From positions 1 through 30,614 of the forward strand of contig JBBIIG010000049.1 in assembly GCA_037446635.1 (NCBI GenBank): a stretch of DNA of 30,614 nucleotides, given 5' to 3'. The notes beneath the pieces were generated by a model that was not told the DNA's origin, made no database searches, and was given only the letters and a program-made list of their open reading frames with translations. The stretch is from a bacterium (GTDB lineage: Bacteria; Zhuqueibacterota; Zhuqueibacteria; Oceanimicrobiales; Oceanimicrobiaceae). Made by a program: the position numbers and the translations under genes. This document shows positions 7,894 to 30,614 of the stretch, in pieces. Position 1 is the first letter of the stretch. Every line of letters begins with the position of its first letter.

Positions 7894-7917
7894 AAACTTA
7901 AGTTTTGGACTCCGGGG

Positions 7918-9080: not shown

Positions 9081-9118
9081 CGTCAATCAAAAATTTGAAT
9101 CAAAAGGGAATTTCTAAA

Positions 9119-10828: not shown

Positions 10829-10853
10829 AATCTTCCTTTCATGATAGGAGATT

Positions 10854-10924
10854 AATGAAAAATGAAAATAGCAAAAATGCAAATTTCAAAATTTTGCGTT
10901 TTTCACTCTGCATTTTGCATTTCA
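10854..10924. repeat. Inverted heptamer-like repeat (AATGMAA... / ...TGCATTT)
   Basis: aatgaaa aatgaaa ... aatgcaa on the left and ctgcattttgcatttc on the right, between the AKR and amidase genes. Confidence 0.55.
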
Positions 10925-10928
10925 GATG

Positions 10929-11912: not shown

Positions 11913-11930
11913 TTGTTCCTCCATTCGTGC

Positions 11931-11952
11931 AACACAACATTAATGTTGTGTT
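11931..11952. repeat. Palindrome AACACAACATTAATGTTGTGTT
   Basis: Perfect 22-bp palindrome just upstream of the AKR gene. Could be REP-like or an operator. Confidence 0.55.
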
Positions 11953-12053
11953 ACGTTACACCTACCCTCTTTCCCAACCTAACCGTAAGGCGCGCGAAGA
12001 ACAAAGGACGCTATTAATGTTTCTACCTTGCGACCCTTGCGAATTCCTCGCGC

Positions 12054-13799: not shown

Positions 13800-13822
13800 A
13801 GTTGATGAAAATGCTGTAATTA

Positions 13823-13856
13823 CCGTAGGGGGGCGATTCATGAATCACCCCTACGG
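13823..13856. repeat. GTAG-type REP palindrome
   Basis: CCGTAGGGGGGCGATTCATGAATCACCCCTACGG. Confidence 0.75.
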
Positions 13857-13958
13857 TTGAAATTGATCCTATTTACTCGTTTTACTCGCGGCCAAATTTC
13901 AAATCGTTCCCAAACTTCCAGTTTGCAAACGCAACTGCCCGACCAGCTTTGTTTCTCC

Positions 13959-14102
13959 TCAAAGGCGATTGTCGGTGCTGATGAACAGCTGATTCACCAC
14001 CGCGATCACGGCGTCTTTTTCAAGCAAAATTTTATTTTGTGAATTTTGATTTGAGCAGGCTGCCAGCAACAGAATTAGCAGTAAATTCAGAAATGGCAAC
14101 AT
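13959..14102 (-). pseudogene. Truncated lipoprotein (47 aa), probable SnoaL/NTF2-like remnant
   Basis: Strong RBS GGGGAGG. MLPFLNLLLILLLAAC lipobox, then 'EKDAVIAVVNQLFISTDNRL*'. Too short for the ORF track. Confidence 0.6.
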
Positions 14103-14183
14103 TCCTCCCCTTTCAATTTTAACGCCACCATAATAGCGATTCGCTGCAACAAAATCAAGCTGCGAGATGCGACTGTCGTGGCG

Positions 14184-14215
14184 AACCCTGGCAAGGTTGA
14201 AACCCTGTCAGGGTT
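14184..14215. repeat. Double palindrome AACCCTGGCAAGGTT-GA-AACCCTGTCAGGGTT
   Basis: Two tandem 15-bp hairpins just downstream of the mtgA stop. Confidence 0.6.
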
Positions 14216-14219
14216 TTGA

Positions 14220-15185
14220 TTACTGCAAGCTGTCGGGTGGAACGGACTCTTGGGAATCACTGGCAGATGAGCCGGGCACCGAGGTGGCAAACAACGAATC
14301 TTCTTCCACATCAACTTCAACTTCGGGCGATTCTGTGATGAGGGTATCGGAAAGCATGGGCGCAATCACGGGCATTTGACCGCGCAAATGAAGAGGTTCG
14401 GCAAAAGCAGCTTCAGCGGTTTGGGCATCGATTACTTTGGAAATTACCAGCAAATCCAGCACCCTCTTTTGAAATCGGCGTGCGGTTTCCACGCGGCGGA
14501 ATGGACTGAAGCGCTTGGGGTTCGGCAGAATTCCCGCTAACATCGTGGCTTCGGACAAATTCAGATCACTGGCAGATTTGCCGAAGTGGTACTGCGCGGC
14601 CGCCTCGGCGCCGTAAACATTCTCCCCCCACTCGATGATGTTCAGATACAATTCTAAAATCTGTTTTTTGCTCAACACTTTTTCAATTCGCCGGGCGACG
14701 ATGATTTCGCGGACTTTGCGAATAAGGGTTTTCTCTTTGCTCAAAAACGCGTTGCGCGCCAACTGCATGGTAATGGTGCTGGCGCCGCGGGCGTAGCGGC
14801 CGCGCTGCCAGTTGACCTTCCACGCCTCTTTCATCATTTGAAAATTCACGCCGTCGTGATGCCAAAAGGTGTCATCCTCGCTGATGATGACAGCCCTCTG
14901 CAAATTCTCGGCTATGGCCGATAGCGGCACCACTTTACGGATCGGCTCATCGCGTTTTTTTTGCCAATCAAAATTGTTGAAGGATTTAACGGTGGAGGAA
15001 AGTTGGAATTCTTTGATCTCCTGCTCGCTGGGCAATCCGCCTAAAATAGCGAAGGCGCTGAGCGCAAGGATGATCAGAAAAAGCAAAGAAAACAAGATAA
15101 TGAGACGCGCAAACGGTGAAAGGCGCCGGGATGAAATTTCAGAGGCCGGCGCATCAGAGGAAGAGGTGGTCGGTTCTTCGGTCAT
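14220..15185 (-). CDS. mtgA: Monofunctional peptidoglycan transglycosylase (GT51)
   Basis: One TM. Motifs 'SEDDTFWHHDG', 'GASTITMQLARNAF', 'RKVRE', 'ILELYLN', 'LPNP'. No transpeptidase domain. Confidence 0.9.
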   Translation of the reverse strand: MTEEPTTSSSDAPASEISSRRLSPFARLIILFSLLFLIILALSAFAILGGLPSEQEIKEFQLSSTVKSFNNFDWQKKRDEPIRKVVPLSAIAENLQRAVIISEDDTFWHHDGVNFQMMKEAWKVNWQRGRYARGASTITMQLARNAFLSKEKTLIRKVREIIVARRIEKVLSKKQILELYLNIIEWGENVYGAEAAAQYHFGKSASDLNLSEATMLAGILPNPKRFSPFRRVETARRFQKRVLDLLVISKVIDAQTAEAAFAEPLHLRGQMPVIAPMLSDTLITESPEVEVDVEEDSLFATSVPGSSASDSQESVPPDSLQ

Positions 15186-15217
15186 GTAATAACCTTAATT
15201 TAGAAAACGGGCCGCGA

Positions 15218-15295
15218 TCACCTGAAATTAAATTTCAGGCGACGCAACGCCGTAGCCGTAGGGATAATTCATGAATTACCCTCCTACCCCTACGG
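15218..15295. repeat. Palindrome CCTGAAATT-A-AATTTCAGG plus GTAG-type REP
   Basis: Hairpin at 15221-15239. CCGTAGGGATAATTCATGAATTACCCTCCTACCCCTACGG at 15256-15295 overlaps the stop codon of the pyrophosphorylase gene. Confidence 0.7.
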
Positions 15296-16726
15296 GTTCG
15301 TTTCTAAATATAACTCACCATCAAATTTGATTTCACGACTTATTTTTGCAGCAAGTTCTTCCGCGTCGAGGGCAAACAGTGGGCTGATTTCAATGTTTCC
15401 CTGCACGTTGTTATGAGCATCGCGGGGGACGGCAACTCCGGCCTGCTCCAACCAGGCGCCGTATAAATTCACCAGATCCCGGCGCGCGGTTTCCGGGGAA
15501 TCCGGGCCGCTGTCGTTTTTGACCGGGCTGAACTCCTGTTCGCGGGCAACTTCCAAAATCACCGTGCGTTCGGCGTACATCAGGGCGTCGAACACAAAGG
15601 TCTCGAATTTGTAGCCGTTCGGCCGGGAGGGGGTCTGCTCTTCGCCGCGCTCGTCCAAAAACGGAATCACTTTGTGCGCCACGTGCCACGGCAGTTTAAA
15701 ACCATCGCGATTCAACTCCTCGATGAACGCAACGTCAAACACATGAATGGCGATGCTGCCGGCGCGAAACGTTAAGCTGCCATCGGGATTGGTCTGGGAT
15801 TTTTGCTCCTCCGACAAATCACTGTATTCCACCACCCCGAGGCGGCCACCAATTTTGGCGACCACTCCGACTTTCTCGTGGGCGTCGCGCTTGCTCACCA
15901 CTTTGGCCGACATCTGCGCTCGATTCTGCAAATGAAAGCCGATGAACACCGGGTCGCAAATTTTCACCAGAACGTTATCCACCTGAAAATAAAACAGCAA
16001 ATCGATGCCGCGGGCGCGCAGGTTTTCCAACGCGCCGCTTTTGTGCAGCGCCGAGAGCGAGCCGCCGTGGCCGTTGGGGTTGGTGAAAATGTGATCTTTG
16101 GCGTCGAGAATAAGCTTGCCCTGTTCATCCAGAGCCGGGATCATTTCCTGCTGGAACAACATTACGTCGGCGGACGGCAATCCAAAAAAATCGTGGCGCT
16201 CGAAAAACTCCACCGCGCCCTCGTGATTGCTTTCGCTGGTCATGATCAGCCACGGAATGGTGGTCTGATATTTCCGGGAAAGCGCTTTAATCTGTTCCGC
16301 AAAAAGTTGGAAGAAGCTTTTTTGTTTGACGGGCGTGATGGGAAAAATTCCTTTCGGCCCGGTAAACCCCAACCGTGTGCCCTGGCCGCCGGCCACCACA
16401 AACGCCGCCACCCGGCCCTGGCGCAGAGCCTGCTCACCGACTTGTTTTGCTACTTCAAACGGCTGCTTTTCTTCGGGAGTTTTGGGAAGCTGAATGAAAT
16501 CCGCCGGCTCGAGACGGCTGGAGAGTTTAGCGCCCGCGGGGTTTTCGATCAAGTTGCGATACAGTCTGGCCAACAAATCGAAATCGATCTCCCGCAATTG
16601 CGCCAGCAGCTTGTTTCGGGAGGAGTCGTCCAGCTCGTTCCAGTACCGCAAAACGTGATTTTGTCCGGCGGCGCGGACTTGTTGCAACAACTTTTTTTCG
16701 TCAGTGTGTGTAGTTGTAACCAGCAT
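15290..16726 (-). CDS. UDPGP type 1 family nucleotidyltransferase (UAP1-like UDP-GlcNAc pyrophosphorylase)
   Basis: 'AGGQGTRLG..GPKG', 'PNGHGG', 'QVDN', 'VEYSD', 'KFETFVFD', 'EFSPVKN'. Confidence 0.92.
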   Translation of the reverse strand: MLVTTTHTDEKKLLQQVRAAGQNHVLRYWNELDDSSRNKLLAQLREIDFDLLARLYRNLIENPAGAKLSSRLEPADFIQLPKTPEEKQPFEVAKQVGEQALRQGRVAAFVVAGGQGTRLGFTGPKGIFPITPVKQKSFFQLFAEQIKALSRKYQTTIPWLIMTSESNHEGAVEFFERHDFFGLPSADVMLFQQEMIPALDEQGKLILDAKDHIFTNPNGHGGSLSALHKSGALENLRARGIDLLFYFQVDNVLVKICDPVFIGFHLQNRAQMSAKVVSKRDAHEKVGVVAKIGGRLGVVEYSDLSEEQKSQTNPDGSLTFRAGSIAIHVFDVAFIEELNRDGFKLPWHVAHKVIPFLDERGEEQTPSRPNGYKFETFVFDALMYAERTVILEVAREQEFSPVKNDSGPDSPETARRDLVNLYGAWLEQAGVAVPRDAHNNVQGNIEISPLFALDAEELAAKISREIKFDGELYLETNP

Positions 16727-17077: not shown

Positions 17078-17106
17078 TTGACATTTAAGAAGCAATTTTG
17101 TATGCT
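17078..17106 (+). promoter_or_regulatory. Near-consensus sigma70 promoter
   Basis: TTGACA (17078-83), 17 nt spacer, TATGCT (17101-06). Confidence 0.7.
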
Positions 17107-17145: not shown

Positions 17146-17173
17146 ACCCAGCCTGATGCGGCTGGGTTTTTTG
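17146..17173 (+). terminator. Intrinsic terminator upstream of the sigma gene
   Basis: ACCCAGCC-TGATGC-GGCTGGGT followed by a T tract. Confidence 0.7.
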
Positions 17174-17208
17174 TTTTCACCAATACTTTTTCTAAAAGGC
17201 GCCGCGAA

Positions 17209-17853
17209 ATGATCCCGTTCGTTCCGGGCTTCTTGCTTTATTGTCGGCAGAATCTCTCCATCATTCATTTTGCCGAGCTTTTGGATTTATGCATTAACCG
17301 GGCGCACGAATGCTATCAGGAGGCGTGGTATGAGTTTGAGCGCCGTTATCGCGCCATCATCTTTGCCCGCATCCGCGCCCATCTCCTGCGTTGGAGCGCC
17401 GCCAACAACCGCGAATACATGGAAGACATCTCAAGCAAAATCACCGAACGCCTGCTGGCCAACGAGTGCCGCGCCCTTCGAAACTTCAAGGGGCGGGAAA
17501 ATGAAGGCAAATTCATCAGCTTTTTAAGTGTCATCTGCCAGCGCGCTGCCAACTCCTACATGATTCTTCAAACTCAATTGAATCCGGCGCTTCTGGAAGG
17601 GATAACCATCCCCCAAGAAGACAAAGCAGATTTGTTCGATCTTTATGTCGAAACTCTGCGGGACAAGTTGGCCGATTCCCAGAAATCGCCGCTTAACATC
17701 GAGCGCGATATGTTTATTTTTTTGCTGCGCTTCCTGGCGGAATTCAAATCCAAGGACGTAGCCGCGATCCCGTTGTTGAAATTGAGCCCGCACAACGTCG
17801 ATATCATCGTCCATCGCCTGTGCGCCATTCTTCGCGATCAGAAAAAAAACTAA
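17209..17853 (+). CDS. Divergent ECF-type sigma-70 factor
   Basis: Region 2-like 'AWYEFERRYRAII...EDISSKITERL...FISFLSVICQRAANSY' and region 4-like 'RDMFIFLLRFLAEFKSKDVA...SPHNVDIIVHRL'. About 210 aa and adjacent to ZAS genes. Confidence 0.72.
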   Translation: MIPFVPGFLLYCRQNLSIIHFAELLDLCINRAHECYQEAWYEFERRYRAIIFARIRAHLLRWSAANNREYMEDISSKITERLLANECRALRNFKGRENEGKFISFLSVICQRAANSYMILQTQLNPALLEGITIPQEDKADLFDLYVETLRDKLADSQKSPLNIERDMFIFLLRFLAEFKSKDVAAIPLLKLSPHNVDIIVHRLCAILRDQKKN

Positions 17854-17866
17854 ATTGGGTAGGCGC

Positions 17867-17895
17867 TGAGAGATTTCCGCAGCCCCGGTTCACTA
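17867..17895 (+). promoter_or_regulatory. Candidate ECF promoter, copy A
   Basis: TGAGAGATTT-N13-TCACTA. Same motif and spacing as copy B at 25766. Confidence 0.5.
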
Positions 17896-17970
17896 TATGG
17901 TTGAGCGCTCAAATTACCAGTGTAAATTAAATCACACGTTCTGCTTAACTTACCAACATCAAAGAGGCAG

Positions 17971-18345
17971 ATGAAAACATCTGTGCAACATCTCTCGTGC
18001 GGCGCCTTAGCGGCGTTGGCCAAAACGAAGGAAACCGGGGACGAGGTTGGAAAATCCATGCAACACCTCAATACATGCGCTGAGTGTGCTCGAAATTTCG
18101 CCGCTGTCACCAAGTGGCTGAACACGTCTCCCTCGGAACTGAACGACAGGGTATCCAACTTCTTCAAAACCGCCCACTGCAGTGAAGAAGAGAGCGATAA
18201 TGACAAAGCCGCTTCAATATTCGTCTCCTTTTTAAATCCGGAGCCTTCGGAATCCAATTCGCTAACGTTGTTTAGGCACCTCAATAAGTGTTACCCTTGC
18301 TTCGAGATGTTTGTTAGGAGCTGGAACGACTATTTGAACACTTAG
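17971..18345 (+). CDS. Soluble twin zinc-finger (ZAS/zf-HC2-like) protein
   Basis: H7-x24-H32xxxCxxC ('HLNTCAEC') and a second 'HLNKCYPC'. RBS AAGAGG, no TM. Confidence 0.72.
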   Translation: MKTSVQHLSCGALAALAKTKETGDEVGKSMQHLNTCAECARNFAAVTKWLNTSPSELNDRVSNFFKTAHCSEEESDNDKAASIFVSFLNPEPSESNSLTLFRHLNKCYPCFEMFVRSWNDYLNT

Positions 18346-18513
18346 AAGTCGAGCTGAAGCTGATCGCCTTCGATTCATGTTTTGACTCTGCTCGCGATGA
18401 AAAGATTTTGACACCCTTTGTCGAGTTTTCTTGAGCAAAATCGCTGCGAGTTTGCCCGGCAAACAGTGGATTCTTTTCGGCCCGACTTCTATGAAACGCA
18501 TCAAGGGAACACC

Positions 18514-19617
18514 ATGACAAAACAAGACACCCAACATCTCAATTATGCTTACTTTCAAGCGTTGATTAAAAACCAGCTTTCGCAAACACAAATTCGTGAA
18601 CACGAAACCCATTTGGCGCAATGCGAGCGCTGCCGCGTTCTCGCCGAAACCTTGACCGACGCCCGCACCATCGCCGGGCGGCCATCGAAAACCGTGGACG
18701 TCCACCCGCGGAAAGCCGACTTGACGGCAACCATCGAAAAGCTCTTGGCCGAAGAATGTTCGCCGCGCGAGGCCGCCGATCTCCTTGGCCACGTGGTTTC
18801 GTGCAAACGATGCTTCAGTTATCTGGAATCGTTTTTTGAGGAAGCCTTTCGGCCGTTGGGGGAAAACATTGCGGATCAATTGCAAATGTACGCCGGCATC
18901 TCCATCGCCAAACAAGCGCTGGCGCTGCGCCCGCCCAAAAGCAGTTGGACCGCCCCGCTGACCGACTGGGTGAAAAAAATAATCCCGGAGCCTATTCCCA
19001 AGTGGGGCCTGGCCACCGCCGGAGCGGCCATGTGCCTGCTGATCGTATTTGGCGGAATACGTTACTACCAAACCAGCTATCGTTTAAACCTCTCAGAAAA
19101 GATATTGAAAGAGCATCACCGCGTTTTTGTGGAAGACACACCCCGGCCCAGCGGCGGATATGCCGCCGCCGGCATCAGCGTTCTGATGGCGCCCGATACC
19201 GCCAGCTATTTGGCGCAGGCTCTGGACTTAACAAAGAAAGCCCTCGACAACGGCGCGGATAAAAACCGCTCCCAGCATTTGCTGGCGCGGATTCTGATCT
19301 TCCAAAATCAACTGGCGGAGGCCGACTCGGTGTTCCATCAGTTGGAGCCCGCCGCCCAAAACCGTGCAGAGGTTCTGAACGATCGCGGCGTGTTGGAATC
19401 GAAGCGGCAAAATTGGCCAGCCGCCGCAAATTATTTCGATGCCGCCATTCGCGCGGACGCCACGTTCGCCGAGGCTTATTACAACTTAGCGCTGGCGCTC
19501 AGTAAACAGGGTCAAAACGCCGGCGCGATTACGCTGCTCAATGATTTTCTCAAAATAGAAAAAGACGAAGGGTGGAAAATCGCAGCGCGGGAATGGCTCA
19601 AGCGCTTAAACATGTAG
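18514..19617 (+). CDS. Anti-sigma factor: twin ZAS + TM + TPR domain
   Basis: 'HLAQCERC' and 'HVVSCKRC', TM 'WGLATAGAAMCLLIVFGGI', TPRs 'AEVLNDRGV...', 'AEAYYNLALAL'. Start at 18514 after AAGGGA. Confidence 0.8.
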   Translation: MTKQDTQHLNYAYFQALIKNQLSQTQIREHETHLAQCERCRVLAETLTDARTIAGRPSKTVDVHPRKADLTATIEKLLAEECSPREAADLLGHVVSCKRCFSYLESFFEEAFRPLGENIADQLQMYAGISIAKQALALRPPKSSWTAPLTDWVKKIIPEPIPKWGLATAGAAMCLLIVFGGIRYYQTSYRLNLSEKILKEHHRVFVEDTPRPSGGYAAAGISVLMAPDTASYLAQALDLTKKALDNGADKNRSQHLLARILIFQNQLAEADSVFHQLEPAAQNRAEVLNDRGVLESKRQNWPAAANYFDAAIRADATFAEAYYNLALALSKQGQNAGAITLLNDFLKIEKDEGWKIAAREWLKRLNM

Positions 19618-19644
19618 TTCTAATCAAGCTAAAGGAGGCAGGAG

Positions 19645-21234
19645 ATGGTAGCCCTATTCATGCTGATATGGAATGTTCTAAAAAGATGGTTGGGGATACG
19701 CATCACGGTCATCCGCCGGCTGCCGGCGGCCAAATCATTGGACGTGCACCTCTTGGGGTTGGCCGCCGCGGTGACGGGCGTGCTGATGGCCAGCGCCATC
19801 GCCTACCAAACCACGTTGTTGACGCAGTTGTGGGTCACGCTTTTTTGGATCGGCTTGATTCTGCTGGGCGTCCTGTTTGGCAGCGGCATCACCACGCTAC
19901 TCGCCGTGATAACCTTTTTAATTCTCACTCTCGCCGGCGGCTCATCCGTTCTATTTATTTTGCTGCGCGGCTACGTGTTGGGGTACGCCTTCGGGGCGGT
20001 GTTCGCGATTTTGTACAACGACCTGGTGTATCTCTACCTGAGAATTTTTGAGCGCCGCCTGACGAAGATCGCGTTTGCCGTTTATGATGATCGCGAAGTG
20101 AACATCATCAAATCGCCCATTCAAGAAGAAGAACGAGCGCTGCGCGAATTGGCTCCCCCTCGAGCAGAGCTGCTTTATGATTATGAGATCGCTCACCCGC
20201 CGGCCGCGCCCTACACCATCTTATTTGTGGCCAATCCCTTCATTCGCCGACGCAAGGCTCAACAAGCGGACCCGGATGTCTTTGCCGCGGATCCAATTTT
20301 GGATGACCGGGAATTGTTTCTCAATTCGGTCAATCGCGCGCTGCGCAGTTTTGAAGATAACGAAGCCCTCGGCCATCCGGAAATCTGGAGCCGGGTGCGC
20401 GTGGTCGTCATCTTTGATGATTCGTTAAAAACGGAGGCCGCCAGCGATTGGGCGCTCATTGAAGAGCTGCAAATCCCATTTGTCATCAACGACGAGACCA
20501 TCGAAAACATTCTCGACCCGCTGCCGCAAATGACCGCCCGCGTGAGCAACCTGCTGCAAAGATATGAAACGCGCCGCGGGGAAAGACTCGTTCGCATTGA
20601 AGACGTGGACATCATCTTTGGCATGAGCGCCTGGCCCAATTATATTCGCTCCTTCGCCCATTTTTCGGATTACAGAGAAGGCCAGGGGGGAATCCCGGAC
20701 CGCGCCGGCACCGGCGCCGGATTTCATTTTGAGCCAGCTCCAAACAACGGCGGCGGACGACCCGTGAATGCGAACGGTTTGATTCATGAATTTCGCGTCT
20801 CCGAGCCGGGCCGGGTGGCGCTCAGCGTGGTAGGCGCCAACCAGCGCACCTTCATCCATGAGTTCGCTCACGCCATGTCCTCGATGATTAACGGCGCCGT
20901 TGCCGATGAATACACCGACCGCATCCTGGTAATCCAGGAAGCGAAGGATCTAAATACTCCGCGGCCGCTTTACATCAATCAGATCGAGCGGCCATTTCAC
21001 AACTCGCCCCGCTTCAATGGCGTCCCAAAAGTGTTTGCAGATTACAACGGCGCAGTCTTTCACAGCGATCTGGCGCACCCTTCGGCGAAGGAACACTGGC
21101 TCGGCTACTTTCCCGACCGCCCGAACCCAGATGTTGGCTGCACCATGGATCGCTACTTCGGCCACTACCGCTTCGATAATTTGATCGGCAACTTCATGTA
21201 CGATCGGCTAACCGCCAAACTCAATCGTCCATAA
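19645..21234 (+). CDS. Membrane-anchored zinc metallopeptidase, M64-like
   Basis: About 4 N-terminal TM segments. 'TFIHEFAH...AVADEY' (HExxH at 20857-20871) and downstream 'GCTMDR'. Strong RBS AAGGAGG. Confidence 0.7.
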   Translation: MVALFMLIWNVLKRWLGIRITVIRRLPAAKSLDVHLLGLAAAVTGVLMASAIAYQTTLLTQLWVTLFWIGLILLGVLFGSGITTLLAVITFLILTLAGGSSVLFILLRGYVLGYAFGAVFAILYNDLVYLYLRIFERRLTKIAFAVYDDREVNIIKSPIQEEERALRELAPPRAELLYDYEIAHPPAAPYTILFVANPFIRRRKAQQADPDVFAADPILDDRELFLNSVNRALRSFEDNEALGHPEIWSRVRVVVIFDDSLKTEAASDWALIEELQIPFVINDETIENILDPLPQMTARVSNLLQRYETRRGERLVRIEDVDIIFGMSAWPNYIRSFAHFSDYREGQGGIPDRAGTGAGFHFEPAPNNGGGRPVNANGLIHEFRVSEPGRVALSVVGANQRTFIHEFAHAMSSMINGAVADEYTDRILVIQEAKDLNTPRPLYINQIERPFHNSPRFNGVPKVFADYNGAVFHSDLAHPSAKEHWLGYFPDRPNPDVGCTMDRYFGHYRFDNLIGNFMYDRLTAKLNRP

Positions 21235-21263
21235 GACTTCACAAATAGTCGGAGGGATTTGAC

Positions 21264-22250
21264 ATGCTGCCTTTCAATCCATCCTTTCGCCGTCTCTTGA
21301 ACAAATTTCTACCGCAGTTACGCGATGAAGATTTGGATCGGCACGAGAGTCTCATCGCCTTGCGGCAGCAGTTACTTATTGAGCGCGACCTGTCTCCGCC
21401 GCCGCAGATCGCAGGCGAGCAAACCGCGCCCGCGCTTAGAGATATCGCTACTCTCATCGAGCGCGCAACCCAATTAGCGGACGCGATCCTGCGGCCGTTT
21501 CGGACGGAGTTCCGGCTGCTGCTGCGTCTCTATGACCACCAGCGCCGGCAGCAGCTTTTCAAAGGACGGTTCACGCCCTTTCCAACCTCGCCCTCAAGTT
21601 TCGTCCAGTTTGTCAGGCACGTCGCCGTGGGGCTGGTGCTTGAGCCACTCATCTATATTAGAATTTTCATCCTGCAAATTCGCCGCGCCCTCGCCGAATT
21701 GACCTCGGCGCAGGGGATCGCTGTTGCCGCTGCGGCGGCGCTGCTGCTTTTGGGCGTGATCACCCTCAACAATCAAACGGTTGGCGTCCCCAAGCCAGAC
21801 ATCAGCGCGACAGCGGAAATCGATTCCGGCCGGGCCGTTCATACTATCGAGATTCAAAAAATGAGCGAGAGCCAGTTTGATCCAAACCACCCGCAACCCC
21901 TCGAAATCAACATCGCCACCGAGTCGGTAACGGACGCCTTCGATGGCACCGTCACGATCCGCACGATCGCCGCGGTCATCGAAATCATCGCGCCGACCAA
22001 TCTGGCGTCGGCGCCGGTTGTTTGGTCGAAGGCGGGGCAATACGATGGCCTGGAATACCAGTTAGTCTTGATGCAGGAAAACGGCAACTCGACGCAAATC
22101 GTGATCGCGGCCCGCGCCGCGGATCAGGTCGCCGTGTCAGCGCAAGACTCGGTGGTGCGTAGTGAGTATCACCGAAAATCAGGAATTCGCAAAGTAACCG
22201 TGAGGTCGGTTTATACGCTGACTTCAACGACAGCGATGAGCTTGAAATAG
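21264..22250 (+). CDS. Hypothetical membrane protein (helical N-terminus, central TM, beta-rich C-terminus)
   Basis: 328-aa ORF with RBS GGAGG, packed between neighbours with 29 and 10 nt gaps. Confidence 0.7.
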   Translation: MLPFNPSFRRLLNKFLPQLRDEDLDRHESLIALRQQLLIERDLSPPPQIAGEQTAPALRDIATLIERATQLADAILRPFRTEFRLLLRLYDHQRRQQLFKGRFTPFPTSPSSFVQFVRHVAVGLVLEPLIYIRIFILQIRRALAELTSAQGIAVAAAAALLLLGVITLNNQTVGVPKPDISATAEIDSGRAVHTIEIQKMSESQFDPNHPQPLEINIATESVTDAFDGTVTIRTIAAVIEIIAPTNLASAPVVWSKAGQYDGLEYQLVLMQENGNSTQIVIAARAADQVAVSAQDSVVRSEYHRKSGIRKVTVRSVYTLTSTTAMSLK

Positions 22251-22260
22251 CGGTGCAGTC

Positions 22261-25200
22261 TTGAAAAGAAAATTAACATACTTTGCGCTCCTAACTTCCG
22301 TGGGCGCCGCGATCGCGATCTACTGGCAGCTTAACCGCCAGCCGACGCTGGCGCAACTGCAGCAAAAATATCTCACGGCCCAAAACGACAGCGAGCGCGC
22401 TCGAATCATCGATCAGGTGGAAGAATATTATCTCCACCTCAGCGTGGAAGATTCCATCCGAAAACGCGTCGAGCAAAACGTGGCGGCAATGGTGGACACT
22501 TCCCGGCCCGGCCTTTCCGATTTTGACGGCGGCTGGGACTCGCCGGATCTCTATGCCCTGGAATCCCGCCTCAAACAACTGCTGAAAGCCGCGATGATCG
22601 TTTGCGCAAAATCCTCGCGGGAGGCGTGCGCGGCGTTCCTGCAAAAGGCAGTGGAACGCGCGGCTTTTGTGGATAGCAAAACGCAGCACCAATATTGGAC
22701 GGCGCTCGTGGAAAAAATGAAGGCCTACTCAAAAAAAGCAGCGCTGGCTTATTTGCGGGCCGGGGAAGCGGCGGCGTGGTGTGCAAGAAGGATCGATCGC
22801 GATTACCAGGCGGCGGAGCAGAGCGCCGCGCTGGCGCTGCAGTATTTGCGGTCGCGCCGGAATGAAAGATTACGACTCGAATTGATGCAGCGTATTCAGT
22901 ACATTCTCTTTTTATTTCGCAACCTGAATGAGCTGTCCATCGCTTTAGCGGAACACAACTGGCCGGCCGCGGAAAAAGTTGGCGATTATTTGCGGATGAC
23001 GGGGATTTTGTACAATCAAGCCGAGGCCTATGGAAGAGGTGGTGAAATTGAGAACTTACTGAAACAGTGCCAGCGTATTCAAAATCTTGCTGAGGAACAT
23101 AAAGATATTTCAATAATAAGTTGGTATCAGATAAAAGCAATGATTTTTACCATCGAGGCCTACTGGCGATTAGGTGATTTTGAAAAAGCGTTAATTGTGG
23201 TCGCTCAAGCTGAACAGTTACGGCTGTCGCCCGAAGAAATTGTTGTACTAACAAACTTAAAAGGCCTGATATCTCAAGGTTTGGGAAATTACGAAATAGC
23301 CGAGTCAGAATTTAAACGGGCGTTGCTGTTGGCAGACTCATCGGCGGTGCTATTCAATAGAATTGTGTTTCGAATTAATTTAGCCGATCTGTATCGTAAC
23401 CTCACAGAATACGAGCTTGCATCCACTTATCTAAATCAGGCCACCCAATTGTTATATGAATATGATGTCGAAACCAGCGGAGAATTTGTGCGAGTCCTTT
23501 TTAACAGCAATTTGCTGGAGGCCACAACTGAAAAGGTACAACCGTTATTGACTCACAAGTTGATAGAGCAAACGAAACGAATACTCACCGGCGCGCAACA
23601 TTCGCCCAACTCGGAATCAAGATTGCACTTTACACTTGGCCGATTGTATTTTGCCCTCCAAGAATATCAAAATGCTTTGCCGGCATTTCAGTCCGCGGAA
23701 CGTATTTGCGAACAAAATGGATTGATAAGTTTTGCATGGGAAGTAAAAATAAACGCCGCCAAAACATTGCTCCATTTGCGGGAATTCGACCAGGCTAGAA
23801 AAAAGGTGAATGAAGTTTTCCTTGCCAGCCGGGAGAAAAAAGAATATGAACGCATGATCGATGCTCTCGCCATCAGGGCTGAAATCGAACGCCAGAAAGG
23901 AGATTTGAATGCCGCCATCAACATTACTAACCAACTCATTAACACTGTCGAAGAGCTAAGCGGACGTTTCGAGCAGCCTCATCGTCTGGCGGCCTTCCGA
24001 CAAAAAATGTACGATTACCTGAAACAAGCTGTCCTTTATGAAATTTACCGAAACCGGGTGGACTCGGCCCTCATCAAATTGGATTATGCCAAGTCTCGAG
24101 CATTAAAACACTTTGAGAATTTTGGAAATGGAGACTCTCGAATGCCGATCCCCTTCGTGGGTAAGCATCTAATCAACATTGATTCTTTAAAAAACAACGT
24201 GGGCGAACGCAAAGTCGTCCTTGATTACTTTCTAAGTTCTGACACCTTGTACATGTTTGTCATCTCCCGTGCAGATTCGCTGCTCTTGAAAAAGCAGGTT
24301 GATATAAATGATTTGAAAAAAAATGTTTATGATCTTCTAAAAAACATCAATCAAACCATCACTCTTTTCAAAAATTATGATCCAAGCAACAATCGCAGGC
24401 ACTTCATAGAAAACACAGAGCTGGCTCACAGCTTGTTTGAAAAATTAATGGGGCTTCCGGAACTCAAAGCGGTGTTGGAAAATGTGAATATGATCTACTT
24501 CGTACCGGATGAATTTCTTTACCAGGTACCGTTCGCAGCGCTGGTGGTTGACACGACAAAAGAAGCCAAATACCTCGTAGAAACAGCCGCCCTGGCGTAT
24601 CTGCCGGCTGTCTCATTTTTGCAGCCGAATTCTAAAATATCAGATGGCGCTTCTCTGCATAGCCAACGCTCTTTGATCAGCGCCAACCCGGATATCCCAG
24701 GCGTTAGCGAGCTCGTGAACTTTCTCCGCAAGACATTCCCTCTATTTGAAGAATTACAAACCAACTCTCCGCCGACGAAACAACACATCATCGAAAAATT
24801 AACCGCGGGCCATGACGTTTACATTGTAGTAGGACACGGCAGCGCCAACCCAACAGAGGTAGAACGCTCACAGATGGAATTTACTATCAAGGATGAACAA
24901 AACGGATCAATCGTAACCATTCCCCTCACAATTGCAGATCTAAAACAAACAACCTGGTTCGGCGCTAAAATGGTGATGCTGGTCGGCTGCGAGACCGGCG
25001 GCGGCAAAGTTTATCGCGGCGCCGGCATGATCGGGCTGCAGCAGTGGTTCGCTGCCATGGGCGCCGAGAATGTGATCGGAAGCCAATGGAAAGTAGATGC
25101 CGCTCAAACCCTGGATCAAATAGAGCATTTTATCGGCGTCTGGCTGGAGAATGACAACCCAGCAAAAGCTTTGCAAACGGTGCAATCGGCGGCCATCCAA

Positions 25201-25278
25201 AAGCTGAGACAGCACGACTATTTCAAATTTCCGCATCCCTATTACTGGTCCGCCAATACCTTAATCTGCAAAAATTAA
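22261..25278 (+). CDS. TPR-CHAT (caspase HetF-associated) protease with N-terminal signal anchor
   Basis: TTG start, KRK + hydrophobic stretch, TPR-like array. CHAT motifs 'FVPDEFLYQVPFAAL', 'GHG' (H859), 'LVGCETG' (C910), 'IGSQWKVD', 'HPYYWSA'. Confidence 0.92.
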   Translation: MKRKLTYFALLTSVGAAIAIYWQLNRQPTLAQLQQKYLTAQNDSERARIIDQVEEYYLHLSVEDSIRKRVEQNVAAMVDTSRPGLSDFDGGWDSPDLYALESRLKQLLKAAMIVCAKSSREACAAFLQKAVERAAFVDSKTQHQYWTALVEKMKAYSKKAALAYLRAGEAAAWCARRIDRDYQAAEQSAALALQYLRSRRNERLRLELMQRIQYILFLFRNLNELSIALAEHNWPAAEKVGDYLRMTGILYNQAEAYGRGGEIENLLKQCQRIQNLAEEHKDISIISWYQIKAMIFTIEAYWRLGDFEKALIVVAQAEQLRLSPEEIVVLTNLKGLISQGLGNYEIAESEFKRALLLADSSAVLFNRIVFRINLADLYRNLTEYELASTYLNQATQLLYEYDVETSGEFVRVLFNSNLLEATTEKVQPLLTHKLIEQTKRILTGAQHSPNSESRLHFTLGRLYFALQEYQNALPAFQSAERICEQNGLISFAWEVKINAAKTLLHLREFDQARKKVNEVFLASREKKEYERMIDALAIRAEIERQKGDLNAAINITNQLINTVEELSGRFEQPHRLAAFRQKMYDYLKQAVLYEIYRNRVDSALIKLDYAKSRALKHFENFGNGDSRMPIPFVGKHLINIDSLKNNVGERKVVLDYFLSSDTLYMFVISRADSLLLKKQVDINDLKKNVYDLLKNINQTITLFKNYDPSNNRRHFIENTELAHSLFEKLMGLPELKAVLENVNMIYFVPDEFLYQVPFAALVVDTTKEAKYLVETAALAYLPAVSFLQPNSKISDGASLHSQRSLISANPDIPGVSELVNFLRKTFPLFEELQTNSPPTKQHIIEKLTAGHDVYIVVGHGSANPTEVERSQMEFTIKDEQNGSIVTIPLTIADLKQTTWFGAKMVMLVGCETGGGKVYRGAGMIGLQQWFAAMGAENVIGSQWKVDAAQTLDQIEHFIGVWLENDNPAKALQTVQSAAIQKLRQHDYFKFPHPYYWSANTLICKN

Positions 25279-25295
25279 AGAAGACAGGAGGAATT

Positions 25296-25649
25296 ATGTT
25301 GAACAAACGTCCTGCTATCTATTTTCAAGGCGGCACATTTGGCGGCGGCGGCCCGGATGACGGCGCCCGCACACCGGAATCCGCAGCGGGCCGCAGCCAG
25401 GGCTATTTGGCGGTGGCGTTCGGCCTGGCGCTCGGGCTCACGCTCATGGTTTTCTTCGGAATTTTTCGGGCGTTTCCGGGGCTGATCTCGGAGTTCCGAG
25501 CGCTGCAGGAGTTTGTGGCGGCGGTCTATCCCAATCTTTGGCTGAGCTTCCTGTTCGGTTTCATTGGCGGAACGCTCATCTCGGCCATTTACAACATGCT
25601 GGTGGTGCGCCGCCTCAACCTCTTTGGGTTGGAATACACCCACGACTGA
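25296..25649 (+). CDS. Small 2-TM membrane protein with Gly-rich N-terminus
   Basis: RBS GGAGG. Two hydrophobic helices ending 'GFIGGTLISAIYN'. Confidence 0.75.
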   Translation: MLNKRPAIYFQGGTFGGGGPDDGARTPESAAGRSQGYLAVAFGLALGLTLMVFFGIFRAFPGLISEFRALQEFVAAVYPNLWLSFLFGFIGGTLISAIYNMLVVRRLNLFGLEYTHD

Positions 25650-25686
25650 TCTCCATTCCCCCCGCATCAGCGGGCCTCACTAAAAC

Positions 25687-25728
25687 GGGTGCGTTTCATG
25701 CTAAAAACATGAACGCACCCATTTTTTT
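25687..25728 (+). terminator. Intrinsic terminator closing the sigma-CHAT operon
   Basis: GGGTGCGTT(T)CATG-CTAAAAA-CATGAACGCACCC followed by ATTTTTTT. Confidence 0.7.
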
Positions 25729-25765
25729 ATCTCGATTAGATTCCCTAAAAAAATCCCGAGCAAGT

Positions 25766-25794
25766 TGTGAGATTTTTCCAAATCTGAGTGACTA
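25766..25794 (+). promoter_or_regulatory. Candidate ECF promoter, copy B
   Basis: TGTGAGATTT-N13-TGACTA, 93 nt upstream of ATG 25888. Confidence 0.5.
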
Positions 25795-25887
25795 ACTAAT
25801 TGCAAGAAGATCAGAGTCAGAAACTGATCGTCACCATCAATCGTGGTTGCAAAACCACCAACCCTAAAATCATAAAGGAGGTTCATC

Positions 25888-26541
25888 ATGCCACTCGGAA
25901 TGTTTGTCAACCCGCTGCCGGATTTGCGGGCCGGCCATCTGCTGCAGTTCGATTTCCCGGCTGATTACCGCACGCGCGGCGCCCTGCCGAACATCAACAT
26001 CGCGCCGCCGGGTATCGAGCAAATGTACGGACTGTTGGGAACGCCGCCCAAAGAACAGGGGCACCCGGTGATCAAAGAGCGTCCGGTTGAAGACGAGGAT
26101 CCACGCACGCCGCCCTACCAGGATCAGATCATCGACATCGATCAGCGTGCGGCGATCTACCACACCGGCCGCTTGAGCGGAGTGTTGGCGAAGTTTTTGG
26201 CGCAGGACCGCTATGAATCGCGCGTTCGTTTCGACGCACTGCCGCTGACCATCGCGGGCGCGCCCATCCCAATCCGCACCATCAATGCTTCCCTGGCTGC
26301 GCAGGCGGAATCGGTCAATGTCTGGTATTTTCGCGATCCCGCCACCCAGCAGGAGCTGATGTTTCACGCGCGGGTCTTTTTCAACCCGGCAAGCGTGGGC
26401 TTAACCCCTGGCAACCTTTACAAACTCACCGTCCGTTGGGAGTTCTGGGATAAAAGCTCGACGCCCAATCTGCGGATGCCGATTTCCGGTTTCGATGAAA
26501 CCGTGGCGTTCGAGGTGAGCGAGGCTACCATCAACTTGTGA
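25888..26541 (+). CDS. Hypothetical soluble protein, probable beta-sandwich
   Basis: Strong RBS AAAGGAGG, 217 aa, no TM, C-terminal 'PGNLYKLTVRWEF...PISGFDE'. Confidence 0.8.
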   Translation: MPLGMFVNPLPDLRAGHLLQFDFPADYRTRGALPNINIAPPGIEQMYGLLGTPPKEQGHPVIKERPVEDEDPRTPPYQDQIIDIDQRAAIYHTGRLSGVLAKFLAQDRYESRVRFDALPLTIAGAPIPIRTINASLAAQAESVNVWYFRDPATQQELMFHARVFFNPASVGLTPGNLYKLTVRWEFWDKSSTPNLRMPISGFDETVAFEVSEATINL

Positions 26542-26574
26542 GACCGGCTGTCCAACAGGCTGCCACATCAGCGC

Positions 26575-26614
26575 GGGGCTGTCCTTAATTTTTGTTGCAA
26601 TTTTGGACAGCCCC
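26575..26614. repeat. Intergenic hairpin GGGGCTGTCC-N20-GGACAGCCCC
   Basis: Perfect 10-bp inverted repeat between the 25888 and 26643 genes. Confidence 0.6.
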
Positions 26615-26642
26615 AATTTCAATTAGGCAATGGAGAGTACCA

Positions 26643-27560
26643 ATGAACAACCACCAACTAAAAAGCAACGCGCCGGCGCAGCGGGCAGGCAAGCGAAAAG
26701 GAAAAAGCGCCGCTGCGCTGCGAAACGAACTGGAAAAGCTGAAAGCGATTTTGCTGGAGCGGAACGGCCAGCTCGCGGCTAACCAACAGGAGTTGGAAAA
26801 TAAACAGCAAGAAATCAACGCGCTGCAAAAGAAAATCCCGGCGATGGAAACCGAATTAAAACAGGCGGAGGAAATCAAACAGGAAAATATTGAATTGAAA
26901 AAACAGTTGCACGCGCTGGTAGAGAAGTCATCCCGTCAAACGGAGGAGCTGAAGCGCGAGCTGCGTGAGTCGGAACGGCAGCGGCTGCACCTTGAACAGG
27001 AAAACAAAGATTTGCGAACGCAATTAGCCGAGTACGTTCAAAAATACCGAGCGGCGCAAATCGAGCTCGCAAACCGCTCCGCAACCAACCTGCCGTTGCC
27101 GGATGACTCGCAGAAAACCGTTATCCCCAAAAACGCAGAAGCGACCGTTGCTAACGCGGGCGTCAAACGCGAAGCGATGATCCCGCTGAACAGCGTGAAG
27201 ATACTCAAGCAAATAAAAATTCAACAGAGCGATCAATTCATTTCGCCGGGGCAACCCCTGCGGGCGCTGCGCCCGTTTACCGTTTTGACGACCATGCGGC
27301 TTCAGAAAGCGCCGAGCGCCTCGGCGCTCGCCAACGAGCTGGCGGATTTTGCCGTGACCGTTGAAGCGCAGGGGACAAAAGCTAACGAGCTAAACAAGGC
27401 CAGCGCGGTCGAAGAACTGGTTTGCGGAAAACAAGATTACCACATAACCGTGCCCATGCCGAGCCTCAAAGCCGGAGAATACTGCCTGAAAATCTCCGCG
27501 CTCGTGCCGTACGCCCGGATCGATGAACAGGAAAAATTAGAGATTGCGGTTGTGAATTAA
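26643..27560 (+). CDS. Coiled-coil protein with C-terminal Ig-like domain
   Basis: About 120 aa of E/K/Q/L heptads, then beta-rich '...PSLKAGEYCLKISALVP...'. RBS GGAG before ATG 26643. Confidence 0.75.
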   Translation: MNNHQLKSNAPAQRAGKRKGKSAAALRNELEKLKAILLERNGQLAANQQELENKQQEINALQKKIPAMETELKQAEEIKQENIELKKQLHALVEKSSRQTEELKRELRESERQRLHLEQENKDLRTQLAEYVQKYRAAQIELANRSATNLPLPDDSQKTVIPKNAEATVANAGVKREAMIPLNSVKILKQIKIQQSDQFISPGQPLRALRPFTVLTTMRLQKAPSASALANELADFAVTVEAQGTKANELNKASAVEELVCGKQDYHITVPMPSLKAGEYCLKISALVPYARIDEQEKLEIAVVN

Positions 27561-27902: not shown

Positions 27903-30614
27903 CTATTTTTGCAGAGTTATTCGATGGGCAAAAAAACGCCCCCCGGCTTCCAAACGCATGAAATAAGTCCCCGAGCTAACCTGGTTGCCAAATTCGTCTT
28001 TGCCATCCCAAAAGCACGCGCTTCATCCCAGCCGATTCCTCGCCGTCCACCAGCATGCGCACCATTTGACCACGAATGTTATAAATTTTAAGTTGCACCG
28101 ATGCTCTCTCCGGCAAAGAATATTCGATCGTCGTTTCGGCGTTGAAGGGGTTCGGGTACCTCGGGAAAAGCTGATAACGACTGGGAAGGGCTTGCTCGGT
28201 TTCGATTTTTTCCGATTCAAGATTGGCAGCGATTTTGGCGGCGCTATTCTGCGGCCGAATCTCCAGGCCAATCATCGCCCAGTCAACGGAACTACTGAAT
28301 GAACCGTTCACGGTAACGGCGCTAGCGGAGGCGACGATTTTATCCTCTACGGCGCAGCTTGCGCCGGCGCCGGATGAACCCTGCAATATTTCCGCCCGTT
28401 CCGTGTACCCCGCTCCAGGAGTATGCGTTCTCTCGCGCATCGTCGCGGCGCCGTACACGATCGCCCCACTCACCGACGTGGTTAAGCTAAATGAATAGGC
28501 CGCATTATCCACGCCACCCGAGCAAACCCCATTGACGCCCGTAGTGTTTCCGGAAACCACCGTGCCGATCGGATTGGCGTTCGTACCGGAATAGCGACAA
28601 ACCACGATCACCGCGTTTTTGGGAACAGCCGCAAAAGTAGCGGTAACCGGGCCATCTCCGCTGGGGCTGCCCTGCGCCATCCATACTTCAATGCCCGTCT
28701 GATTGCGGCCGCCGCACTGCGACCGAACTCGCATCCAGGTTAATCCTAAACCGGTCACCGAGCTCACGCCCACAACGGATTTCATCGAGATGGCCGCCAA
28801 ATAGAGATGACCGTTCACACCAGCCAAACTCGCGGAAGTCGCAACGCTGTTCACATTCGATGACGCCCCGGTTTTAACCTCTTCAAATGCTATTTCCCCG
28901 CTGGGCGGCGGGCTGTCCACTCCGCTGCCGGTTAAACTCACCTCCTTCGGATCCTCGTCCGAATCGTTGGTGGCAAATCGCAGCGCCGCGTTTTTCGCGC
29001 CCGTCGAAGTCGGGGCGAAACTCACCGCCACGTCGCGGCTCTGGCCCGGCGTCAGCGTGAACGCGCCGCCGCCGCTGGCGATGGAAAATTGCCCGGCGTC
29101 CGTTCCCACTAACGTGGTAGAACTGATCACTAAGTCCGCTGCGCCGTCATTCTTCACTTCAAACGTCTGCTGCGAACTGCTGCCTACCACCACGTCGCCG
29201 TAATTGTGAGAGGACGGCGTAACTGTGATATCCGGCGTTGGCGCGCCCACTCCGCTGCCGGTTAAACTCACCTCCTTCGGATCCTCGTCCGCGTCGTTGG
29301 TGGCAAATCGCAGCGCCGCGTTTTTCGCGCCCGTCGAAGTCGGGGCGAAACTCACCGCCACGTCGCGGCTCTGGCCCGGCGTCAGCGTGAACGCGCCGCC
29401 GCCGCTGGCGATGGAAAATTGCCCGGCGTCCGTTCCCACTAACGTGGTAGAACTGATCACTAAGTCCGCTGCGCCGTCATTCTTCACTTCAAACGTCTGC
29501 TGCGAACTGCTGCCTACCACCACGTCGCCGTAATTGTGAGAGGACGGCGCGACGGTGATATCCGGAACCGGGCTACTGCCACCGCCGCTCCCGGCTTTAA
29601 TTTGCAAACCAATCACCGCCCAATCGGTGGCGCCGCTAAAGGAACCGTTCAACACCACGCTGGCCGACGAAGCGACGCCGCGATCCTGCACCGCAGCTCC
29701 CGCGCCGCTACTGCTGCTCCCCTGAATAACTTCTCCCCGTTCCATGTAGTCCGCGCCTGGCGTGTGATTCTTGGCACGCATCGCTACCGCGCCGTAAATC
29801 AGCCCATTGCCTGCGCTGGTAATATTAAATGAATAGCTGCTGTTGTCCGAACCGCCGGAACACAAACCACTTAAACCGGTGGTGTTGCCAGATATGATTG
29901 TTCCAATGGGATTGGAACTCGCCGCTCCGGAATAGCGCGTGACGATGATCACCGCGTTGCTGGGCGCGCTCGCAAACGTGGCGGTCACCACCCCGCTGCT
30001 GGCGTTGCCCTGCGCCATCCAAACTTCTATTCCCGTCTGGTTGCGGCCCGCACACTGGCTCGCCACCCGCGTCCACGTCAAGCCCAAACCCGATACCCCG
30101 GTCACCGCACGAGTATTCTTCGTTGAGATCGCTGCCAAATACAAATGTCCGTTCGCCCCCGCCAAACTCGAAGCCGTCGATACCGTCGTCAAACTTGTTG
30201 AGCCGCCCGTCTTTACTTCCTCAAACGCGACATCTCCACTCGGCGGCGGACTATCTACTCCCGTCCCTGTCAAACTCACCTCCTTCGGATCCTCGTCCGC
30301 ATCGTTGGTGGCAAATCGCAGGGTGGCAGTTTTTGTCCCCAACGAAGTCGGAGCGAAGCTCACCGCCACGTCGCGGCTCTGGCCCGGCGTCAGCGTGAAC
30401 GCGCCGCCGCCGCTGTCGATGGCAAATTCCCCCGCGTCCGTTCCCGCCAACGTCGTCGAACTGACCACTAAGTCCGCCGTCCCATCATTCTTCACCACAA
30501 ACGTCTGCTGCGAGTTATTACCTACCACCACGTCGCCGAAATTGTGAGTGGCCGGTGTAACGGTGATATCCGGCGCCGGTGCAACCCCACTGCCGCTTAA
30601 GTTGACATCCAATG
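27903..30614 (-). CDS. Large secreted/surface protein (5' partial): choice-of-anchor D/ASH Ig-like repeats, duplicated ~210-aa domain, C-terminal YPNPFN/FlgD-Ig sorting domain (frameshifted near 28011)
   Basis: Three 'PDITV.P..HN[FY]GDV...F.VKNDG.ADL...FAPTS.G.K.A.LRF' units and 'YPNPFNAETTIEYSLP'. After removing 1 nt the frame continues WDGKDEFGNQVSSGTYFMRLEAG...ITLQK* to 27903. Confidence 0.88.
28917..29549. repeat. Near-identical intragenic tandem repeat (303-bp units, period 330)
   Basis: 28917-29219 vs 29247-29549 differ only at GAATCG/GCGTCG by my reading. A diverged third copy lies at about 30256-30558. Confidence 0.9.

Follow-up and report, generated by a model that had tools for sequence, protein, structure and literature searches.

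The question raised by contig JBBIIG010000049.1 (NCBI GenBank assembly GCA_037446635.1, GTDB phylum Zhuqueibacterota) is what a run of nine co-oriented genes, among them genes encoding a divergent sigma factor, zinc anti-sigma (ZAS) proteins, a metallopeptidase and a CHAT protease, might do together, and which of the nine form one system. The window, meaning the whole stretch of DNA analysed, is the entire contig of 30,614 nucleotides (nt). A preliminary description had proposed that the genes from position 17,209 to 27,560 form a protease-controlled signalling system around a sigma factor of the extracytoplasmic function (ECF) type, and the open reading frame (ORF) listing has nine + strand ORFs there in the order that it gave. 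A protease-controlled sigma switch still appears to be the best reading of the locus, now for six of the nine genes and with a predicted cut site, suggested by the co-variation of position 257 of the anti-sigma protein with position 947 of the CHAT protease.

Conservation of a six-gene cassette

Loci were collected through homologs of the peptidase, and six family profiles were mapped on the surrounding DNA that was fetched with them; 12 of the 58 loci were removed as duplicates or near-duplicates, leaving 46 distinct loci. The order sigma factor, anti-sigma protein, peptidase, helical protein, CHAT protease and a protein with two transmembrane (TM) helices (2-TM protein) was complete in 27 of the 46. 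Locus L044 has the same six-gene order with the helical protein fused to the CHAT protease, and in the rearranged locus L047 the genes encoding the peptidase and the helical protein, still adjoining, are placed ahead of the anti-sigma gene. Fifteen of the 46 loci end at contig edges and are consistent with the six-gene order up to there. The same order was found, as far as each locus extends, in 42 metagenome loci obtained through the motif HEFAHA[MI]S, two of which (L134 and L146) are without a detected sigma factor or anti-sigma protein. The gene encoding a soluble ZAS protein was detected in 10 of the 46 loci and the last two genes of the run, termed cargo genes 1 and 2, follow the cassette in one locus, the window. 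Thus the proposed co-conservation holds for six genes and not for nine, and neither the soluble ZAS protein nor the last two genes can be kept in the core of the system.

Strong matches to the peptidase are present in 42 of the 167 genomes of the phylum, all from one class (51 genomes when weak matches to the membrane hairpin only are counted). Relatives of the cassette were found in candidate division KSB1 (Zhuqueibacter), in Calditrichia (Calditrichota) and in four records labelled Cytophagia, the hosts being dozens of uncultured KSB1 and Calditrichota bacteria, and it therefore appears to be a lineage-wide regulator in little-studied phyla. The sigma family is broader, with members in 75 of the 167 genomes.

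Sigma factor and promoters

The first gene (17209-17853, +, 214 aa) encodes a divergent ECF-like sigma factor. Taken as a single sequence its product has no Pfam match and only a match to TIGR02937 with E 0.043, below the curated cut-offs. Among the family members, 7 of 27 match Sigma70_r2 and 4 of 27 match r4_2, and the family profile matches AlgU/RpoE-type structures over positions 21-202 (E 2.6e-7 to 3.7e-6). With a length of 214 aa and sigma2 and sigma4 domains only, the protein has the make-up of an ECF (group 4) sigma factor, and the sigma2 and sigma4 folds expected of this gene in the preliminary description are supported by these family and profile matches.

A search for a bipartite motif in the 150 bases around the sigma stop codon of 28 other loci, with the window excluded, returned G[AG]GA[AG]WW-N13/14-KTGTCYW (total score 439 versus about 270 for shuffled sequences), which in most of the 28 loci lies within about 20 nt of the stop codon. 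The best + strand match of the window, GAGAGAT-N14-TTCACTA at 17868-17895 (11.7 bits), stands just past the sigma stop codon, and in L116, a close relative, the equivalent place is occupied by GAGAGAT-N14-ATGACTA. There is good reason to believe, from these sequences, that the sigma factor reads this promoter motif, and the site at 17868-17895 is predicted to drive the genes from the anti-sigma gene through that of the 2-TM protein. The cassette is closed by a hairpin with a U-tract (25687-25729, +; folding z -5.3, equalled by none of 200 shuffles), so that the terminator placed 3' of the 117-aa gene in the earlier account was confirmed. Beyond it, a second and weaker promoter-like site, GTGAGAT-N14-GTGACTA (25767-25794, +, 9.1 bits), precedes the cargo genes and shares 13 of 16 bases with the first; 38 such sites at that spacing occur in 9.3 million positions. 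Though this second site is weak when taken singly, the close relatives L115 and L116 keep a promoter site at the equivalent position ahead of different cargo, and 7 of 52 loci have a site of at least 11 bits within the 450 bases that follow the 2-TM gene, versus 0 of 52 on the reverse strand.

The sigma gene itself is preceded by a sigma-70-like promoter (17078-17106, +, 10 of 12 consensus matches), which is weak on its own, 13 such sites having been found where 10.0 were expected. Between this promoter and the sigma start codon a hairpin with a U-tract (17146-17177, +, z -1.5), kept in L115 and L116 with a weaker U-tract, could attenuate expression of the sigma factor.

Anti-sigma proteins

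Two HxxxCxxC motifs each are present in the 124-aa soluble ZAS protein (17971-18345, +; H32 and H103) and in the 399-aa protein encoded at 18418-19617 (+; H65 and H125), the latter also having a zf-HC2 match above the cut-off, TPR matches in Pfam and one TM helix (~196-214) after the ZAS motifs, and the pair is therefore as originally described, a soluble twin-ZAS and a twin-ZAS-TM-TPR protein. At least one HxxxCxxC motif was found in 24 of 28 aligned anti-sigma proteins. The 399-aa protein is predicted to be a membrane anti-sigma protein, probably starting at the ATG at 18514, as close relatives align from residue 35, and with high probability its ZAS motifs are cytoplasmic and its loop and TPRs periplasmic. 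The loop just outside the membrane starts with a conserved R-x-x-G-G-[YF] and, about a dozen residues on, has a column (257) of Met/Leu, Arg or His; in the window it reads R243-PSGGY...SVLM-AP, with the codon of Met257 at 19186-19188 (+).

Regarding the optional soluble ZAS gene, its slot between the sigma and anti-sigma genes is taken by a short sigma2-only gene in L018 (12222-12620) and L019 (7357-7782).

CHAT protease and M64-like peptidase

The TPR-CHAT protease (22261-25278, +, 1005 aa) matches the CHAT domain with E 7.8e-37 and has the dyad H859/C910. The active sites of this protein and of the peptidase are intact, as had been reported, and both are invariant across relatives, the CHAT residues in 22 aligned proteins and the peptidase residues in 27, the one broken locus being L032. 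The N-terminus of the CHAT protease has basic residues and a hydrophobic stretch, an anchor or a signal, and 7 of 22 relatives inspected by eye have a lipobox-like Cys; an N-terminal Cys of this kind is generally read as a lipobox. It is very probable on these features that the protein is exported and periplasmic. The genes encoding CHAT or peptidase are fragmented in L024, L032, L049 and L113, by frameshifts or assembly errors, and L032 also has Arg for the catalytic His.

The peptidase (19645-21234, +, 529 aa) has HEFAH at 405-409 (H405/E406/H409), followed by G417, D421-E422-Y423 and C499-x-M501, and in its structure model (mean predicted local distance difference test score, pLDDT, 86) the segment 34-134 forms four membrane helices, so that its description as a membrane HExxH peptidase stands; members of another clade have two TM helices. 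Its catalytic domain is judged very likely to be cytoplasmic in the modelled topology, because an even number of helices follows a basic N-terminus and, by the positive-inside rule, positively charged segments stay on the cytoplasmic side of the membrane. The arrangement of two membrane-located proteases is thereby kept in altered form, with both active sites intact and the two enzymes predicted on opposite sides of the inner membrane, CHAT outside and the metallopeptidase inside.

The label 'M64-like' holds for the fold and not for the family. Structure comparison returned the M64 catalytic-domain fold, while no Pfam M64 match was obtained for any of the 27 members or of 21 further relatives, and the family motif is HEFAH-x7-G-x3-DEY and not the HEXXHXXXGXXD of M64 peptidases (PMC12402451). 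In contrast to the M64 enzymes BF3526 and ThomasA/IgAse, the cassette peptidase has 12 residues rather than 7 from the second His to the Asp, retains a single Cys where their second zinc site has three, and carries a membrane hairpin anchor without a signal peptide or a Pfam M64 match (PMC12402451). No signal peptide was seen by eye in 14 distant relatives. The family, of 361 representatives at 50% identity, is one of unannotated metzincins and would be an unusual cytoplasm-facing relative of the secreted M64 enzymes. A distant branch (P0132-P0150) consists of proteins of 300-570 aa that differ at the N-terminus: some have no additional domain there, and others start with an Ig-like domain, a peptidoglycan-binding domain or two membrane helices; the two-helix domain of P0132 and P0144 looks SLATT-like.

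Helical protein and 2-TM protein

For the helical protein (21264-22250, +, 328 aa) the structure model has a confident hairpin and a TM helix (148-170) ahead of a variable C-terminus, and a fold search with it gave no match. Since it is fused to the N-terminus of the CHAT protease in L020 and L044, the sequences suggest that it provides the CHAT protein with its tail in the cytoplasm.

The 2-TM protein (25296-25649, +, 117 aa) has a DUF5676-like hairpin behind a Gly/Pro/acidic N-terminal tail (GGGPxDD), a GGP- or PPP-type motif being present in the tails of 25 of 25 aligned family members. It is homologous to the membrane anchor of the peptidase (hhalign 96.7%, E 3.5e-10), and both lean towards DUF5676: 5 of 26 relatives of the 2-TM protein match this family (best E 9.3e-6), the window protein has no match to it, and the two sequences scored singly stayed under 27.6 bits. 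The 2-TM protein may be holin-like.

A predicted cut site in the anti-sigma protein

In 33 pairs of anti-sigma and CHAT proteins (four CHAT proteins without a readable partner were excluded), 11 combine Arg or His at 257 with Asp at 947 and 21 combine Met or Leu at 257 with a residue other than Asp at 947, with one exception (L089). Of all columns of the CHAT domain, 947 gives the best acidic match, and among those of the anti-sigma protein the best basic one is 257 (one mismatch, the next column having six). The new metagenome pairs agreed in 16 of 16 cases, or 15 of 15 after dropping the tandem locus L124, the duplicate L138 also being left out. In a quick tree of the CHAT proteins the Met/non-Asp state is found in two separate clades (Shimodaira-Hasegawa-like approximate likelihood ratio test, SH-aLRT, 100 and 98), a clade of 22 rows and the pair L097 and L098 inside the Asp clade. 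By eye, two other CHAT loci of the window's genome have Arg-Gly in the anti-sigma protein and Asp at the fourth position after the conserved Trp (W+4), the equivalent of 947 in the window (W943+4), where the residue is Ala.

Craspases cut after Met or Leu and separases after Arg (PMC11506125), and in clan CD proteases the loop after beta5 binds the substrate (PMC4626109); position 947 is located in that loop. The Csx29 chain of the S. brodae type has Ser at the equivalent column. It is somewhat better than an even chance, judged from this co-variation, that the CHAT protease cuts the anti-sigma protein after Met257, the predicted P1 residue, with a specificity tied to CHAT residue 947.

Relation to known systems

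The closest known system is DdvS/DdvA of Myxococcus xanthus (PMC11506125; PDB 8ROT and 8RW5), which the preliminary description did not name and which is the proper comparison. The CHAT profile matches 8rot with E 1e-5. Shared with DdvS/DdvA are an ECF sigma factor, a cytoplasmic zinc anti-sigma domain, one TM helix and a periplasmic TPR-CHAT with a His-Cys dyad (the location being predicted for the cassette), as well as the proposal of a CHAT cut in the juxtamembrane linker followed by RseP (PMC11506125). Unlike in DdvA, the anti-sigma protein and CHAT are separate ORFs in all mapped loci, adjacent only in L047, and unlike DdvS/DdvA the cassette has three additional genes that are conserved, a promoter after the sigma gene, and ZAS motifs that number one or two and can be joined by a separate soluble ZAS protein. 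It also differs from DdvS/DdvA in having no CBASS-CRISPR defence island in the window or the sampled flanking genes; no CBASS or CRISPR genes were detected in either, the flanks having been scanned only in part, and more distant targets are possible.

With the type III-E Craspase/CASP system (Csx29, Csx30, CASP-sigma; PMC10028731) the cassette has in common a TPR-CHAT acting on a sigma inhibitor and a hydrophobic P1, here predicted, together with a residue other than Asp at the 947-equivalent column of the S. brodae-type Csx29 chain. Craspase is, in contrast, cytoplasmic and activated by RNA through Cas7-11, and its substrate Csx30 is not a ZAS-TM protein (PMC10028731). Among 23 window proteins scanned there was no cas gene product, Cas7-11 included, and no Csx30, PADLOC gave no match for the core genes, and no array search was run. 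Craspase shares only its logic with the cassette.

As in the RseA/DegS/RseP and RsiW pathways, where a site-1 cut outside and a site-2 cut in the membrane are followed by cytoplasmic clean-up and release of the sigma factor (PMC11506125, PMC10028731), the cassette would work by successive cuts; unlike in these pathways, the site-1 cut is predicted to fall to a cysteine protease of clan CD, and the operon brings along its own dedicated metzincin. A published description of the cassette was not found in a literature search that did not extend to subscription journals and supplements. What is new beside a split DdvA-type core are three undescribed conserved parts and a one-residue handle on the CHAT site-1 step. 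CHAT as the site-1 enzyme acting on an anti-sigma protein is unproven for DdvA, the only characterised case (PMC11506125); here enzyme and substrate are separate, and natural variants yield a prediction at the level of single residues, a cut after Met257 with specificity via CHAT 947. The many split sigma/anti-sigma/CHAT trios of other phyla may follow the same rule, an Arg-Gly loop being paired with Asp at W+4.

Proposed mechanism and its alternatives

The six conserved genes may encode a regulated-proteolysis switch, for which, taken as a whole chain, we see an even chance. A signal at the TPRs, at a guess damage to the envelope or a foreign protein that they bind in the periplasm, would activate the exported TPR-CHAT protease, which would cut the periplasmic loop of the anti-sigma protein just after Met257; RseP would cut the remaining stub within the membrane, and the M64-like peptidase would cut or clear the ZAS fragment on the cytoplasmic side. 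The freed ECF-like sigma factor would then transcribe the cassette and its variable cargo from the promoter behind its own gene. The helical protein would form the tail of the CHAT receptor in the cytoplasm, and the 2-TM protein would be a scaffold that docks the peptidase by like-with-like packing of hairpins, its Gly/Pro tail holding or feeding the peptidase active site until the signal arrives. Support for this chain, all at the level of sequence, comes from gene order, active sites, the promoter motif, the shared hairpin, the helical-CHAT fusions and the 257/947 co-variation. By analogy with DdvA, whose stub is lost to RseP once TPR-CHAT is removed (PMC11506125), RseP probably acts after the CHAT cut, and a full-length M50 protease gene is present in the genome (contig C34, full profile covered). 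The weakest step is the part of the peptidase in clearing the anti-sigma protein, which we consider doubtful.

Several observations weigh against the switch. Co-occurrence is one-way, the peptidase being nearly always found with the remaining genes and not the reverse, as follows from loci chosen through the peptidase and from other sigma loci without it: among the matches listed, 20 further loci with a member of this sigma family are all without the peptidase; at least five of them have a CHAT gene (sigma/anti-sigma/CHAT loci without peptidase are L097, L098 and L112-L114) and most have none, so the sigma and anti-sigma proteins can exist without the machine. Conversely, L020 has the peptidase, the fusion and the 2-TM gene with no sigma or anti-sigma gene within 8.3 kb upstream, and L081 has no adjoining sigma gene. 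The promoter scores of the window are modest (11.7 and 9.1 bits), and 715 sites of at least 11 bits occur in the genome. Regarding the cut site, if any residue is allowed, three further columns of CHAT divide the pairs into these classes no worse than 947, the held-out pairs belong to the same three sequence types, and the coupled changes are few, about two independent ones (at least two on the quick tree); equivalence of 947 to the Arg-binding Asp of separase was not established, the numbering of the papers fitting W+4 or W+8. The presence of RseP makes a second metallopeptidase unnecessary for sigma release, and CHAT activity was not seen in DdvA itself (PMC11506125).

The strongest alternative, in our view unlikely, is that the switch consists of the sigma factor, the anti-sigma protein, CHAT and host RseP, with the peptidase, helical and 2-TM proteins forming an effector arm after induction, in which the peptidase clips the Pro-rich 2-TM tail and the hairpins oligomerise and depolarise the membrane, leading to dormancy or abortive infection. 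All three genes lie 3' of the predicted sigma promoter, the peptidase and the 2-TM protein have the hairpin in common (hhalign 96.7%; DUF5676-like in 5 of 26 members), distant peptidase relatives P0132 and P0144 bear a different two-helix membrane domain, and the sigma/anti-sigma/CHAT loci L097, L098 and L112-L114 do without the peptidase. All 25 tails have the GGP- or PPP-type motif, and BF3526, which is nearest to the peptidase in structure, cleaves close to N-termini and prefers Pro (PMC12402451). Set against this, Pfam and PADLOC gave no pore or defence match, the flanking genes look like housekeeping genes, and two loci have the helical protein and CHAT as one fused chain, which fits signalling.

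Less probable is a peptidase arm that, once induced, resets or damps the response, keeping the pulse limited by destroying the activated CHAT tail, the sigma factor or the soluble ZAS protein. Its transcription with the anti-sigma gene from the predicted sigma promoter resembles negative feedback, peptidase and helical protein adjoin even in the rearranged L047, and the sigma2-only gene in the optional slot of L018 and L019 suggests layered damping, yet the present data point to no substrate.

Similarly improbable is that CHAT leaves the anti-sigma protein uncut, either processing a secreted cargo or a foreign protein instead or binding the loop and no more, and that the 257/947 match reflects shared ancestry. 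The small number of independent changes and the other clade-marking CHAT columns are compatible with this, as are orphan sigma/anti-sigma pairs that retain the loop without a neighbouring CHAT and DdvA dyad mutants without a phenotype at rest (PMC11506125). However, L097 and L098 lie within the Asp clade and have both residues changed, the match is chemical (acid-base, neutral-hydrophobic) and reciprocal-best, and the two further CHAT loci of the genome show by eye the Arg-Gly and Asp combination.

There is, finally, a slim chance of a self-contained protease relay across the inner membrane, in which a periplasmic CHAT receptor with a programmable P1 code cuts the anti-sigma protein and its cytoplasmic helical tail activates the inward-facing metzincin of a new family, which clips the Gly/Pro tail of the holin-like 2-TM protein to give a pore or a peptide signal. 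Such a relay, if true, would pass from a caspase-like to a metalloprotease step and so connect transcription with an effector in the membrane, without CRISPR or a nucleotide messenger.

Cargo genes and neighbourhood

Returning to the sigma switch, the last two genes of the run may be a variable cargo of this sigma family. Cargo gene 1 (25888-26541, +, 217 aa), for which no family assignment was found, has relatives in 10 of the 167 genomes, away from the cassette, and cargo gene 2 (26592-27560, +, 322 aa), which encodes a coiled coil and a conserved C-terminal domain and likely starts at the ATG at 26643 with its better ribosome-binding site, travels with it. The promoter motif precedes 2 of 13 scored relatives of cargo gene 1, several of which end at contig edges, namely those in L065 and L074 (18.2 and 18.3 bits), far from cassettes. 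A recurring cargo protein is a trypsin-like protease with a GDSG motif and, in those scanned, a C-terminal SLT lytic transglycosylase domain (L017 16276-18027, L036 16968-20799, L126 7816-9573, L096 7937-9823, and L065, L066, L068, L069 and L070). In five loci it comes after relatives of the two cargo genes, in three it comes after the cassette behind a strong copy of the promoter, and in L096 it is placed four genes beyond a sigma/anti-sigma pair. Being common to both settings, it ties the relatives of the cargo genes to the cassette; no match to it was detected in the genome of the window.

The link to conflict or defence that had been suggested for the locus was not borne out, as PADLOC gave no match for the seven upstream genes and the sampled flanks encode housekeeping or secreted proteins. 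The loci most closely related to the window, L115 (9602-11957) and L116 (9121-11488), have a different cargo in the same slot, part of which is an HExxH protein of 441 aa that matches Lit/U49, M48 and M78.

Parts paralogous to the cassette are present elsewhere in the same genome (C84 9956-12021, C3 92960-97288, C52 18782-23790 and C25 41076-46840), namely two pairs that have the promoter motif, one of sigma and anti-sigma genes and one of TPR and TPR-CHAT genes, and two further anti-sigma-like/CHAT loci. The remainder of the window consists of ordinary genes at 1-16726, encoding flippase-like and YfhO-like proteins, a histidine kinase, an HlyD/TolC/TetR efflux set, an amidase, an aldo-keto reductase, PolX-PHP, a transglycosylase and a UDP-sugar pyrophosphorylase, and of an unrelated neighbour at 27976-30612 (-), truncated at the contig end, which encodes a secreted protein that has choice-of-anchor D repeats, three of them, and a tail like those of the type IX secretion system (T9SS) and FlgD.

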